From Nitrospinae bacterium CG11_big_fil_rev_8_21_14_0_20_45_15 (GTDB lineage Bacteria > Nitrospinota > Nitrospinia > Nitrospinales > VA-1): a DNA stretch of 64,000 nucleotides. The notes beneath the pieces are model-generated. The model was not told the DNA's origin. It saw only the letters and a list, made by a program, of their open reading frames with translations, and made no database searches. The stretch lies in NCBI GenBank assembly GCA_002787235.1, contig PCWG01000033.1, positions 62,438 through 126,437 of the forward strand. Direction: 5' to 3'. Both the position numbers and the translations under genes were made by a program. Shown here piece by piece: positions 48,832 through 55,455 of the stretch (position 1 is its first letter; each line of letters opens with the position of its first letter).

Positions 48832-49605
48832 ATGACCCCCTTCAATAGATATGAAAATGAAAATTCTATAGGAGCCGTTATTCAGGCAAGAATAGGCTCC
48901 GTCCGAAGTCCTGGTAAAGTCCTGCACTCATTTGCAGGGTTCACTATAATAGAACATATTGTTAAACGGATTCAACTGATTAAGGAATTTTCCCTTGTTG
49001 CGTTAGCCATTCCAAGTTCTGAAAAAGAAGAACTCCTAGCTAAAGCAGGATCGCAAGCGGGTGCAATCATTGTGCGAGGTTCGGAAGAAGATGTTCTCAG
49101 CCGTTATATTTTAGCGGGAGAGCAGTTGGGAGTTCCTTATCTTGCGCGTATCTGTGGCGATTGCCCCTGGGTCGATTTAACTTTGGCCAGAGAATTAGCA
49201 CAATGTGCATTGGCAGGTAAAGCAGACTATATCGTAACAACCGACCCGATCCCTTTGGGAACCGGTTTGGAAATTATCAGTCTTTCGGCATTAAAGAGAA
49301 TTGATAAACTTGCCAGCGAACCTCGGTATCGGGAACATGTGACAACTTATATTCACGACCACCCCGATCAATTTGAGCGTTCTTTCATATCTGCACCCGA
49401 GTATCTTCGTAACAACAACTGTCGCCTGACGGTGGATACAGAGGACGATCTCCGATTTCAAGACAGCCTGATGGCTAGTCTGAATACTCAGGAAGCTCAC
49501 ACTATAGAATTGCCAGAAATTCTAACACATCTCAAATCCCATCCCGAACTGCTTCATATCAATGCCCATGTCCTTCAGAAAGATTGGCGCATTTCCCCTG
49601 AATAA
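48832..49605 (+). CDS. SpsF-like cytidylyltransferase-fold protein (sugar nucleotide / glycan modification)
   Basis: IGAVIQARIGSVRSPGKVL...G..IIEH...R, RGSEEDVLSRY, TTDP.P.G...E is the SpsF/acylneuraminate cytidylyltransferase-like pattern. Confidence 0.7.
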   Translation: MTPFNRYENENSIGAVIQARIGSVRSPGKVLHSFAGFTIIEHIVKRIQLIKEFSLVALAIPSSEKEELLAKAGSQAGAIIVRGSEEDVLSRYILAGEQLGVPYLARICGDCPWVDLTLARELAQCALAGKADYIVTTDPIPLGTGLEIISLSALKRIDKLASEPRYREHVTTYIHDHPDQFERSFISAPEYLRNNNCRLTVDTEDDLRFQDSLMASLNTQEAHTIELPEILTHLKSHPELLHINAHVLQKDWRISPE

Positions 49606-49620
49606 TTTTTGCAATAGAAC

Positions 49621-49648
49621 TAAAGTTTAAAGATTTTCAACCGTTATC
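49621..49648 (+). promoter_or_regulatory. Sigma-28 (FliA)-like promoter candidate for the first flagellin gene
   Basis: TAAAGTTT (49621-49628) is a perfect -35. After 11 nt, ACCGTTAT matches GCCGATAA at 5/8. Implies a ~320-nt leader. Confidence 0.45.
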
Positions 49649-49685
49649 AACAATTAAGGGGGCGAATGCCCTGTATTGATAACGG
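49641..49685 (+). repeat. Nested inverted repeat (10-bp outer stem, 4-bp inner GGGC/GCCC stem)
   Basis: CCGTTATCAA (49641-49650) pairs with TTGATAACGG (49676-49685). Inner hairpin GGGC-GAAT-GCCC at 49660-49671. Confidence 0.8.
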
Positions 49686-49728
49686 GGAACACAAAGAGGG
49701 CAGATGTTGAAATAATTAAAATTATAAA

Positions 49729-49904
49729 TTCGGATTGATTCAAAAGCGGAACTGCCTAAGGCCGCTCAAACAAAAGAGGGCAGGGGCGTAGCAGATGTGA
49801 TTTTCAGGAATAAAAGAACGTGAATAAATGTTTTCGGATTGATTCCGAGGCGGAACTGCCAGATGCCGCCAAAATTAAAGAAGGCAGGGGCGTAGCAGAT
49901 GTAA
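49729..49904 (+). repeat. Tandem direct repeat: two 72-nt copies (period 104 nt, 60/72 identical), plus a degenerate partial copy at ~49686-49710
   Basis: Copy A 49729-49800 and copy B 49833-49904 both read ttcggattgattc..gcggaactgcc....gccgc..aaa..aaaga.ggcaggggcgtagcagatgt.a. Confidence 0.9.
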
Positions 49905-49976
49905 AGAATTAAGAATGAAAACAAAAATACGATTTTGAAGTATATTTTTTCTAACTCTATGGTGGAGGATTAGGAG

Positions 49977-50834
49977 ATGCCAGTAAGAATTTTTAATAAT
50001 ATTCCCTCGTTGAATGCCCAGAGAATTTTGGGTATCAACAATGATCGACTTTCTACGTCGATCGAACGAATTTCATCAGGAATAAGGATCAACCGCGGTG
50101 CCGACGATGCCGCTGGTCTCGCCATTTCTGAAGGTTTGCGTTCCGATATTCGTGCTTTGCGTCAGGCGTCTAGAAATGCAAACGATGGAATTTCCCTCAT
50201 CAACGTAGCAGAAGGTGCTCTCAACGAACAAGGCAGTATCCTCATTCGTTTACGTGAGCTAGCCTCCCAGGCCTCGACCGGAACCGTTGGCTCGACTGAG
50301 CGAGCTACGATCCAATTGGAATTCAATCAGCTTCGTAACGAAGTTGACCGAATAGCGGTTACAACTGAATTCAACGGTCAGAAACTTGTGGATGGTTCAC
50401 TTGCTTCGAGTGTTGCAACTTCCAGTCAAATTCTCGTTCAGGTGGGGATCGATAACGGCGCGGACAGCCGTATTAACCTCAATCAACAGATTGATCTTTC
50501 TTCCATAACCCAAACAGGTTTGAGCATTGATTCGATCTCCGTATCAACAGCCGCAGCGGCATTGACGGCATTGGATACTATCAACACCGCCATCACCACA
50601 GTCACACAAAACCGTGGAAAGGTGGGTGCTGTGCAAAACCGACTGACGCGATCCATCGCTAATCTTGGCGTAACGATCGAAAACCTTTCGGCCGCTGAAT
50701 CTGCAATCAGAGATGCAGATATTGCGGAGGAAATTGCCTTGTTGACCCGAAACCAGATTCTGGTTCAATCTTCGACAGCAATGGTCGGGCAAGCTAATCT
50801 GATTCCGCAATCCATTCTCCAGCTCTTGGCCTAA
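49977..50834 (+). CDS. Flagellin (short, D0/D1-only type), paralog 1
   Basis: N-terminus MPVRIFNNIPSLNAQR...RISSG.RINRGADDAAGLAISE. C-terminus LTRNQILVQSSTAMVGQANLIPQSILQLL. RBS GGAGGATTAGGAG. Confidence 0.96.
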   Translation: MPVRIFNNIPSLNAQRILGINNDRLSTSIERISSGIRINRGADDAAGLAISEGLRSDIRALRQASRNANDGISLINVAEGALNEQGSILIRLRELASQASTGTVGSTERATIQLEFNQLRNEVDRIAVTTEFNGQKLVDGSLASSVATSSQILVQVGIDNGADSRINLNQQIDLSSITQTGLSIDSISVSTAAAALTALDTINTAITTVTQNRGKVGAVQNRLTRSIANLGVTIENLSAAESAIRDADIAEEIALLTRNQILVQSSTAMVGQANLIPQSILQLLA

Positions 50835-51852: not shown

Positions 51853-51879
51853 TAAAGTAAGCTCCACTTCCTCCGATAT
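51853..51879 (+). promoter_or_regulatory. Sigma-28-like promoter for flagellin paralog 3
   Basis: TAAA (51853-51856), 15 nt, TCCGATAT (51872-51879), compared with consensus TAAA-N15-GCCGATAA. Implies a ~250-nt leader. Confidence 0.55.
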
Positions 51880-51963
51880 AGCTCATTGAGGACGATAGTA
51901 GCTAAAATCTTAAATAAAAAAATAAACAGGAGGGCTTGGAGTAACTGAAGTAAAAGCAGTAAA

Positions 51964-52133
51964 GGCGAGAAAATGGATTTTTCGCCTACGGGTTAAAGCT
52001 TGGAGGCTTGTTTTGGCATGGAGGTCAAAACAAATAACCCACAGACATCTCAAGGAAATTTCTAACCGTTCGGGTAAGTAGATCAAATCTAATCACCTTG
52101 ATATTTTTAGAAATTTCCACACATCACGGAGGA
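51964..52133 (+). promoter_or_regulatory. Structured flagellin leader with GGA motifs in hairpin loops and in the SD (CsrA-type site pattern)
   Basis: Hairpin 51964-51986 (9-bp stem, loop ATGGA). Hairpin 52010-52031 (GTTTTG/CAAAAC, loop GCATGGAGGT). Weak hairpin 51996-52009 (loop TTGGAG). A 9-bp long-range stem GGAAATTTC (52054-62) / GAAATTTCC (52110-18). SD GGAGGA at 52128-52133. Confidence 0.5.
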
Positions 52134-52137
52134 TAAA

Positions 52138-52995: not shown

Positions 52996-53060
52996 GATAA
53001 AATATAAAATCTCCCGGGTGATCTCGCCCGGGAGGTTGAAGTTTCACCAATTTGTAGAAC

Positions 53061-53099
53061 AAAAGCGTCCCCGTTTAAGCTGGGACGCTTTTTTCTTTT
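53061..53099 (+). terminator. Rho-independent terminator after flagellin paralog 3
   Basis: AAAAGCGTCCC (53061-71) / GGGACGCTTTT (53082-92) followed by TTCTTTT. An extra 8-bp hairpin CTCCCGGG/CCCGGGAG lies at 53011-53034. Confidence 0.85.
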
Positions 53100-53184
53100 A
53101 AATTCATTTCCCCGTAATATCCCCGCCAATACTGGGTTTCCAGCCCCTTTGTTTCTGCTAAAAAATCTATTTTAAAAATAAGTG

Positions 53185-53212
53185 TAAAGGTAAAATTCCA
53201 AATTCCCGATAA
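53185..53212 (+). promoter_or_regulatory. Sigma-28-like promoter for flagellin paralog 4
   Basis: TAAA (53185-88), 16 nt, CCCGATAA (53205-12). Implies a ~155-nt leader. Confidence 0.5.
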
Positions 53213-53315
53213 ATGGTTCATGTGGCGAGATGTCGTCACGAGATGTTTGCTACTCCAAGCAATTTACTCCAAGCATTTTGTTTATTTTTTAGAAGTAATC
53301 GGTACTCATTTGATT

Positions 53316-53329
53316 CAGCAAGGATGCTG
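53316..53329 (+). promoter_or_regulatory. Leader hairpin presenting AGGA in a tetraloop (CsrA-type site candidate)
   Basis: CAGCA-AGGA-TGCTG, 46 nt upstream of the ATG. The SD region AAGGAGGATAAGGAAAC (53358-53374) carries three more GGA. Confidence 0.45.
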
Positions 53330-53374
53330 GATCGGGCTAATAGAAATTCCATTTATCAAGGAGGATAAGGAAAC

Positions 53375-55266: not shown

Positions 55267-55455
55267 ATGTTAGCTATCTTTCCTAAAGCATTTTCGGTAG
55301 GTTTTTCATCAAGATCAGCAGTTTATTCTTCCAGTTCCTCGGACATTGAAGGCAAAATGGATGGCCAAAATGTGCCCTGGTTTGTAAAGGGTGAATCCCA
55401 GGCGATTACGATGATTCCAGATGGTTCAAAGTTAGACGATAAAAAACCATCCTGA
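55267..55455 (+). CDS. Small hypothetical protein (62 aa) downstream of the flagellins
   Basis: ATG preceded by GGAG plus 9 nt. No homology recognised. May be non-coding. Confidence 0.25.
   Translation: MLAIFPKAFSVGFSSRSAVYSSSSSDIEGKMDGQNVPWFVKGESQAITMIPDGSKLDDKKPS

Follow-up and report, generated by a model that had tools for sequence, protein, structure and literature searches.

Introduction

Flagellin is among the costliest proteins of motile cells, and the devices that control it post-transcriptionally differ by lineage, CsrA-FliW and FlbT-FlaF being two of them. CsrA control of flagellin leaders transcribed from sigma-28 promoters is widespread, with Bacillus hag and Campylobacter flaA as examples (PMC4894983). 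Here we analyse the leader of fla1, the first of five tandem flagellin genes in a 64,000-nt stretch of contig PCWG01000033.1 from Nitrospinae bacterium CG11_big_fil_rev_8_21_14_0_20_45_15. This whole stretch is called the window, and coordinates are window positions unless a relative's locus is named. An earlier note had pointed out a repeat with a hairpin in the fla1 leader. Each repeat is predicted to contain an RNA module of ~54 nt folded as an H-type pseudoknot, and the module is best described as a previously undescribed candidate pseudoknot RNA family of the flagellin-1 leader of Nitrospinaceae, with two copies here. Nitrite oxidation in the sea is mainly the work of the Nitrospinaceae, which are hardly accessible to genetic manipulation; for them the module is a covariation-backed candidate regulatory RNA for motility, and for Rfam-type catalogues it would be a new family.

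The leaders under CsrA/FliW control (B. subtilis hag, C. jejuni flaA and B. burgdorferi flaB) resemble the fla1 leader in being sigma-28 flagellin leaders with repeated structured elements and a GGA-rich Shine-Dalgarno (SD) sequence, and homeostatic translational control of flagellin is the logic expected here as well. The known CsrA sites, however, are ANGGA motifs in simple hairpin loops, whereas the module combines a predicted pseudoknot with GGGC, and its GGA is not positionally conserved. In Caulobacter, FlbT/FlaF act on the 5' untranslated region (UTR) of fljK, where one paralog of a multi-flagellin cluster has a translational operator that depends on protein; unlike the module, that operator is described as a stem-loop, FlbT/FlaF are alphaproteobacterial, and no sequence relationship links the two. 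Leader pseudoknots also act as specific protein-binding translational operators in E. coli rpsO (bound by S15), in the alpha operon (S4) and in T4 gene 32, but these include or abut the start codon or SD, whereas the fla1 modules are duplicated and lie 75-230 nt upstream of the ATG.

The module further resembles the preQ1-I, SAM-II/SAM-V and guanidine-III aptamers, which are H-type pseudoknots of 40-55 nt in 5' UTRs, sometimes in tandem, with a short loop L1, an A-rich loop L3 able to line the minor groove of helix S1, and invariant unpaired nucleotides. Unlike these aptamers, it has no Rfam match, leaves the SD outside the pseudoknot and is tied to a single flagellin gene in one family. The flavivirus elements xrRNA1/2 are likewise duplicated pseudoknotted modules of an untranslated region, both of them maintained; they differ in belonging to a viral 3' UTR and in having a ring-like three-way-junction fold.

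Two repeats with a predicted pseudoknot fold precede fla1

The repeats lie within a 371-nt intergenic region between a cytidylyltransferase gene and fla1. A direct-repeat search of the 64-kb window returned 70-nt copies at 49729-49798 and 49833-49902 with 84% identity and a period of 104 nt, which matches the 60/72 identity reported earlier for two 72-nt copies. The 20-mer GGCAGGGGCGTAGCAGATGT, invariant between the copies, occurs exactly twice in the 64 kb and was absent from 100 shuffles even with up to 3 mismatches allowed; its sharing is beyond chance expectation. Tandem Repeats Finder did not report the pair in the window, which is unsurprising with only ~2 copies and divergent spacers. 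Six metagenome contigs encoding an identical flagellin carry a 100% identical intergenic region, so the repeat is not an assembly artefact.

Helix S1 has 5 bp (consensus RGYGG/CCRCY), and in helix S2 the S1 loop pairs with the segment directly 5' of an invariant GGGC. Since the 5' strand of S2 lies inside the S1 loop and its 3' strand beyond S1, the predicted topology is that of an H-type pseudoknot. Over the 15 copies considered below, L1 measures 2-4 nt, L2 2-3 nt and the A-rich L3 9-11 nt, and in all 15 the loops are long enough sterically (at least 1-2 nt for L1 over S2, and at least 3-4 nt for L3 over the 5-bp S1). Invariant unpaired nucleotides are found in L1 (AA), in L3 (its A's) and in GGGC. 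The hairpin arms stand where the earlier note had put them, and the CTGCC/GGCAG complementarity that it had claimed is present in both copies. The features of the repeats in the window are as follows:

49745-49798, + strand: pseudoknot module A (covariance model 65.7 bits, E 2.8e-14)
49745-49749 (AGCGG) / 49762-49766 (CCGCT), + strand: module A, helix S1
49752-49757 (CTGCCT) / 49778-49783 (GGGCAG), + strand: module A, helix S2
49767-49776, + strand: module A, A-rich L3, followed by the tail GGGCGTAGCAGATGT at 49784-49798
49849-49902, + strand: pseudoknot module B (covariance model 64.2 bits, E 6.7e-14)
49849-49853 (GGCGG) / 49866-49870 (CCGCC), + strand: module B, helix S1
49856-49860 (CTGCC) / 49883-49887 (GGCAG), + strand: module B, helix S2
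49871-49880, + strand: module B, L3, with the tail at 49888-49902
49833-49849, + strand: accessory hairpin UUCGGA-UUGAU-UCCGAG, just 5' of module B (RNAfold prediction)
49688-49707, + strand: partial relic of a third unit, AACACAAAGAGGGCAG plus GCAGATGT aligned to the 3' half of the unit

The module is present in syntenic relatives

Relatives' loci were retrieved through homologs of the cytidylyltransferase, and all the loci listed here keep the synteny:

L008/L009: neighbour protein identity 88%
L007, Nitrospinaceae OFTM96: 73%
L010: 67%
L019, Ca. Nitrohelix vancouverensis: 52%
L021: 51%
L023: 49%
L031: 47%
L025: 45%
L027: 44%
L028, Nitrospina sp.: 42%
L032: 40%

A module of ~54 nt stands at the same position, in the leader between the CTP_transf_3 gene and fla1, in ten syntenic loci with neighbour identities of 42-88% (15 copies), and its helices covary there. 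In close relatives the promoter, both modules and a 30-nt ribosome-binding block are conserved, and the other leader sequence drifts. Distant relatives have a single module with different stem sequences. The S1 variants are AGCGG/CCGCT, GGCGG/CCGCC, GACGG/CCGTT, GGTGG/CCACC and AGTGG/CCACT; those of S2 are CTGCC/GGCAG, TTGTCGG/CCGACAG, TGA(A)GAG/CTCTCA, CTGGG/CCCGG, CTGAGG/CCTCGG, CTGAA(A)GG/CCTTCAG and TCGAAGG/CCTTCGG. Most lineages have one copy, and the clade of the window has two, spaced 104, 106 or 97 nt from start to start. L027 also carries two modules (L027 6846-6950), back to back with a period of 47 nt; being nearly identical, they point to a separate recent duplication, and the other relatives of this lineage carry one copy. 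In the same leader GCAGTACCA is repeated just upstream of the SD block.

A covariance model built from the 15 copies and run over the window and the ten loci (176 kb in total) found no further copy, and none in the leaders of the other flagellin paralogs. The module was absent from L032 even with the filters off, although the synteny and sigma-28 promoters are kept there; this locus is the edge of the module's distribution. The fla1 leader of L032 (L032 6748-7274, GCA_024648695.1) is 527 nt long and has two sigma-28-like promoters and the SD block AAATTAGGTGGAGGCCTAAAATG. Scans of genome and metagenome contigs with strict patterns, which are too strict to detect divergent single-copy forms, returned only OFTM96 and one L010-like contig, plus chance matches in high-GC genomes.

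Searching window positions 49300-50300 against Rfam 15 at E <= 10 gave only snoRNA and DicF noise far below gathering thresholds, and the ten orthologous loci gave no gathering-level match. These scans ruled out a known RNA family, including preQ1, SAM-II/V, fluoride, guanidine, c-di-GMP and flg-Rhizobiales. Full-text literature searches returned no description of the pseudoknot motif.

The relatives also allowed two further claims of the earlier note to be judged, and each stood only in part. The block ttcggattgattc, called invariant, has the same sequence in both copies of the window, but relatives do not conserve it and its importance is not supported; with 2 mismatches allowed this 13-mer occurs in the window at chance frequency. 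As for a degenerate third copy, the partial match at 49688-49707 exists, but it is only a weak relic. It consists of L3 and the S2 3' strand fused to AGATGT, and it has no S1, no S2 5' strand and no GGGCGTAGC core. Its local alignment score of 25, compared with a shuffle mean of 15, was reached by 4 of 500 shuffles; the covariance model does not detect it, and it is not conserved in L007 or L010. With two copies at 84% identity, one weak relic and a spacer that is homologous between species, the repeat is indeed not CRISPR-like.

The accessory hairpin is degenerate upstream of module A; equivalent TCGGAA/TTCCGA hairpins precede both modules of L007, and it is not conserved in distant relatives.

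Both helices covary across lineages

The 15 copies were aligned by hand, almost without gaps, and represent ~6-7 independent lineages. In this alignment 92.8% of the cells assigned to helices are paired, compared with 26-57% after a shift of the 3' partners by 1-3 columns. Changes on both sides were seen in 8 of the 12 pairs: S1 is 98.7% paired with covariation in 3 of 5 pairs, and S2 is 88.6% paired with covariation in 5 of 7. Cells changed on both sides numbered 37 versus 14.6 in shuffles, and the covariation score was 0.58 versus 0.23 in shuffles, a value reached by none of 500. The S2 pair 13:40 occurs in five forms (CG, AU, GC, GU and UA), and the S1 pair 3:23 is CG in 8 copies and UA in 7.

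Because the alignment behind these pair counts had been fitted by hand, we added an alignment-free test of S2. For each of 11 copies the S1 loop was shuffled 5,000 times, and the longest helix that it can form with the segment running up to GGGC was compared with those of the shuffled loops. The P values were 0.001-0.055 per copy, over at least 6 different S2 sequences (module A, P = 0.005; module B, P = 0.027). RNAalifold run on an unedited MAFFT alignment recovered S2 independently. The data thus extend both pairings that had been noticed in the window alone: the hairpin S1 is kept by compensatory changes across ~7 lineages, and the pairing of the loop CTGCC with the downstream GGCAG covaries across ~7 lineages as S2, forming the H-type pseudoknot together with S1.

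G-U occurs in 13 paired cells, which would be A-C mismatches on the opposite strand; this fits an RNA on the flagellin strand. It also bears on a signal at the DNA level, either tandem sigma-54 promoters (GG-N10-GC in GGCAGGGGCGTAGCA) or phased transcription-factor sites. The spacing GG-N10-GC is matched by GGCAG-N6-TAGCA in both window copies, and the period of 104 bp is near 10 helical turns. A strict sigma-54 pattern search was nevertheless empty here, and the GC of the -12 element is replaced by GT in module A of L007 and by AA in both copies of L010 and is missing from every distant ortholog, so that sigma-54 promoters were rejected. Phased binding sites were rejected as well, since spacings of 104, 106, 97 and 47 nt show no helical phasing. 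Recognition of duplex DNA leaves the crossing compensatory pairs and the G-U pairs unexplained, and we regard a DNA-level signal as barely credible.

In L007 both modules (L007 7918-7971 and 8024-8077) have the derived S1 state GACGG/CCGTT, whereas the two copies of the window share GCGG/CCGC, and L008 has a first copy similar to copy B of the window. This pattern suggests gene conversion between tandem copies. The derived state ACGG/CCGT shared by the two L007 copies points to such conversion, so that independent events are fewer than cells.

RNAalifold and single-sequence folds gave a second partner for the S1 5' strand, whose positions 2-4 pair with C-R-Y after GGGC instead of with the S1 3' strand. 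This alternative helix has 3 bp, is 95.6% paired and includes one covarying pair (CG 8, UA 6, UG 1). Being mutually exclusive with S1, it hints at a conformational switch; we treat it only as a lead, since it amounts to essentially one column with the same phylogenetic split as S1.

Such a switch would suit a small-molecule riboswitch, in which the pseudoknot is stabilised by a metabolite or second messenger such as c-di-GMP or a nucleotide-sugar linked to flagellin glycosylation. The stabilised form would release or sequester CCRCY, which is able to pair with GGUGG beside the SD, and the tandem copies would sharpen the response. Tandem aptamers are known from the glycine riboswitch. In keeping with this idea, the predicted fold is a compact pseudoknot of the H type and some of its unpaired nucleotides are invariant, which also holds for the preQ1-I and SAM-II aptamers. 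The two exclusive partners of the S1 5' strand, namely the S1 3' strand, here called S1b (5 bp), and the C-R-Y of the tail, agree with it too, and every S1b variant could, with G-U allowed, pair with the invariant GGUGG in the SD block. Yet riboswitches are seldom so narrowly distributed and tied to just one gene, neither a conserved terminator nor a conserved platform adjoining the aptamer is present, and Rfam holds nothing similar; the 3-bp helix shares the weakness named above, and any ligand is pure speculation. We consider a riboswitch possible, though doubtful. With the same reserve, the modules could conceivably represent a new class of ligand- or signal-gated switch, in which toggling of the S1 5' strand between the S1 3' strand and the C-R-Y tail couples a cellular signal to fla1 translation. 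If that were true, selection would have built tandem versions for a sharper response twice independently.

Promoter and ribosome-binding block of the fla1 leader

The leader has the following features besides the modules:

49621-49648, + strand: sigma-28 (FliA)-type promoter of fla1, with -35 TAAAGTTT at 49621-49628, N12 and -10 CCGTTATC at 49641-49648
49659-49672, + strand: 5'-proximal GC hairpin GGGC-GAAU-GCCC at the predicted transcript start
49945-49976, + strand: ribosome-binding block UUUUUUCUAACUCUAUGGUGGAGGAUUAGGAG, with SD GGAGGA at 49964-49969
49977-50834, + strand: fla1, first of five tandem flagellins, 285 aa (from the open reading frame (ORF) list; Flagellin_N and Flagellin_C Pfam domains on an identical protein)

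The promoter at 49621-49648 follows the form that defines sigma-28 sites, in which TAAAGTTT-N11-12-(G)CCGATAA precedes a late flagellar gene, and its block is invariant in close relatives. The pattern TAAAG-N14-17-CCGWTA has 3 matches in the 64 kb, compared with 0.13 expected, all on the + strand (49621, 51853 and 53185) and upstream of fla1, fla3 and fla4. The fla1 leaders of most orthologs match it too, and those of L019 and L021 have close variants. From the promoter motif we infer that fla1 transcription starts at ~49655-49657, which would place the modules in a fla1 5' UTR of ~320 nt.

The GC hairpin at 49659-49672 keeps an invariant stem, with A, T, G or C as the third loop base in the window, L008, L007 and L010; other orthologs have a different GC hairpin at an equivalent position. 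It may be a 5' stabiliser. A perfect 10-bp inverted repeat, CCGTTATCAA at 49641-49650 and TTGATAACGG at 49675-49684, overlaps the fla1 -10 and encloses this hairpin; it is kept only partly in L008, L007 and L010.

The ribosome-binding block UUUUUUCUAACUCUAUGGUGGAGGAUUAGGAG is identical in the window, L007 and L010, and nearly identical, as AACTC(T)ATGGTGGAGGATTAGG, in all motif-bearing orthologs. The 30-nt block of close relatives reads UUUC(U/C)AACUC(U)AUGGUGGAGGAUUAGG, and the block of L032, which has no module, differs. RNAfold pairs CUAACUCUA with UGGAG..UUAG in a possible SD-sequestering hairpin that is weak in energy and shows no covariation. A terminator consensus scan found no terminator-like site between the modules and the fla1 ATG in the window. 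An intrinsic terminator or attenuator before the SD was rejected: the orthologs have only weak AU-rich hairpins, inconsistent among them, and a decent one occurs in L021 alone.

Comparison with the fla3 leader

The leader of fla3 (51853-52137) combines a separate sigma-28-type promoter (51853-51878) with a conserved RNA of several hairpins, whose core lies at ~51964-52040. The covarying hairpin GGCGAG-AAAAUGGAUUU-UUCGCC is part of it, and a closing helix GGGUU/AACCC encloses AAGCU-UGGA-GGCUU and GUUUUGGC-AUGGAG-GUCAAAAC. (A/U)GGA is found in every apical loop, with ACGGAGGA as the SD. L007, L019, L021, L027 and L028 retain the element, which has no Rfam match. Judged by its motifs, the fla3 leader has the classic look of a CsrA/Rsm target, and so the clade probably has a CsrA-type regulator. 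That fla3 has a conserved element of its own also suggests that flagellin leaders in this clade are structured regulatory RNAs.

CsrA (Rsm) might then control fla1 as well, its dimers bridging the GGA of the modules and the GGA-rich SD block, with repression of fla1 translation that FliW relieves. The SD block GGUGGAGGAUUAGGAG carries several GGA motifs, at least one GGA occurs in every module, and the textbook multi-GGA-loop architecture of the neighbouring fla3 leader speaks for a regulator of this type. Within the module, however, GGA has no fixed structural position: mostly it lies at the S1/L1 junction, half buried in S1, and elsewhere at the S2/L2 junction, and in L028 the S1/L1 junction reads GGGC with no GGA. 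The copies conserve the pseudoknot, with covariation, and GGGC, but no ANGGA loop, and comparison with the fla3 element speaks for another mode of recognition. The earlier suggestion that the conserved GGA motifs of the repeats bind CsrA is therefore not supported for the modules, and CsrA bridging as the basis of fla1 control appears improbable. In appearance the fla1 pseudoknot is a recognition element of another kind than that of fla3, though the GGA-rich SD block of fla1 may yet serve as a CsrA site. A pseudoknot confined to fla1 beside a CsrA-like fla3 leader would make this cluster a natural system for the differential regulation of paralogous flagellins.

The modules as candidate docking sites

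The modules are probably cis-acting post-transcriptional control elements of fla1 that provide a docking site for a trans-acting regulator. They would be transcribed from the sigma-28 promoter within the ~320-nt leader, and the pseudoknots would act in cis on translation initiation and/or stability of the fla1 mRNA. Docking of a trans-acting regulator would be the most likely mechanism, and the favoured effector would be a flagellin-homeostasis protein, comparable to CsrA acting on hag/flaA or to FlbT acting on fljK. With two copies, occupancy or cooperativity would increase. That the leader is transcribed, that it regulates fla1 and what effector it has are inferred from the features described above. 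A docking site is favoured by the narrow distribution tied to a single gene, by the invariance of specific unpaired nucleotides, by a flexible copy number and spacing with duplication favoured twice, and by the lack of an adjoining conserved expression platform. The earlier proposal, made from the two copies, that the fla1 leader holds a functional RNA module in duplicate is supported, and the relatives strengthen it. Should the module bind a ligand or a new protein, it would represent a new mechanism of flagellin control.

Flexible copy number and spacing can also be read without a trans factor. The modules would then be an intrinsic mRNA element that raises fla1 expression, either by blocking 5'-to-3' or endonucleolytic decay or as a ribosome standby or SD-like (GGGG) stabiliser. 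Stable conserved pseudoknots upstream of a very highly expressed gene agree with this, and one or two copies with a free spacing of 47-106 nt fit an additive, position-tolerant element; the G-rich tail GGGGC resembles a weak SD, and 5'-proximal hairpins are present too. However, the invariant single-stranded GGGC and the A's of L1 and L3 suggest specific recognition and not bulk structure, the other sigma-28 flagellin leaders of the cluster have no module, and the predicted folding energy of the module is unexceptional (z-scores -0.2 to -1.9). A purely intrinsic role seems unlikely to us.

Several points weigh against the docking-site proposal. The SD lies 60-75 nt 3' of the pseudoknot, beyond an AU-rich spacer of poor conservation, and no conserved platform connects the two. 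None of the neighbouring genes encodes a regulator, and no candidate binding protein is found among them. The start site and the continuity of the leader rest on the promoter motif. Some lineages can do without the module, as L032 shows. The pair counts come from an alignment that was fitted by hand to the structure and is thereby biased, though it is nearly ungapped. It covers only ~6-7 independent lineages, and since the derived states shared by the two L007 copies suggest gene conversion, the events are fewer than the cells.

Other features of the flagellin cluster

The gene order is hisA, hisF, an S66 peptidase gene (minus strand), the CTP_transf_3 cytidylyltransferase gene (48832-49605), the 371-nt intergenic region and the five tandem flagellin genes, which start at 49977, 50887, 52138, 53375 and 54355. 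The window belongs to an uncultured member of the Nitrospinaceae. The best named homologs of the cytidylyltransferase are from Nitrospinae, Nitrospinaceae and Candidatus Nitrohelix. Pfam domains of 20 neighbouring proteins indicated genes for cytochrome c maturation, sugar modification and ABC transport; csrA, fliW and flbT were absent among these 20, in a search limited to the window and loci of ~12 kb.

Start-stop ORFs directly follow the module tails, ATG-TGA at 49795-49800 and ATG-TAA at 49899-49904, 8 nt 3' of GGGG. A leader peptide was rejected, the start-stop pairs being found only in the window and in module A of L007 and absent in L010 and distant orthologs. A minus-strand ORF overlapping the repeats (49766-49924, 52 aa, TTG start) was treated as spurious.

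The genes fla2 and fla5 begin 52 and 122 nt after the preceding genes and have no sigma-28 pattern; given these short gaps and the missing site, they are probably co-transcribed with the preceding flagellin genes. In distant relatives flaG stands among the flagellin genes (L019 10048-10386, L021 10045-10389). The corresponding part of the window, 52996-53374, is a 379-nt intergenic region with terminator-like hairpins, as it is in L007, and flaG appears to have been lost or moved in the window/L007 clade. Directly after the fifth flagellin gene lies a 62-aa ORF (55267-55455, + strand), and a gene of similar size occupies the equivalent place in L007 (62 aa) and in L019 and L021 (66 aa).

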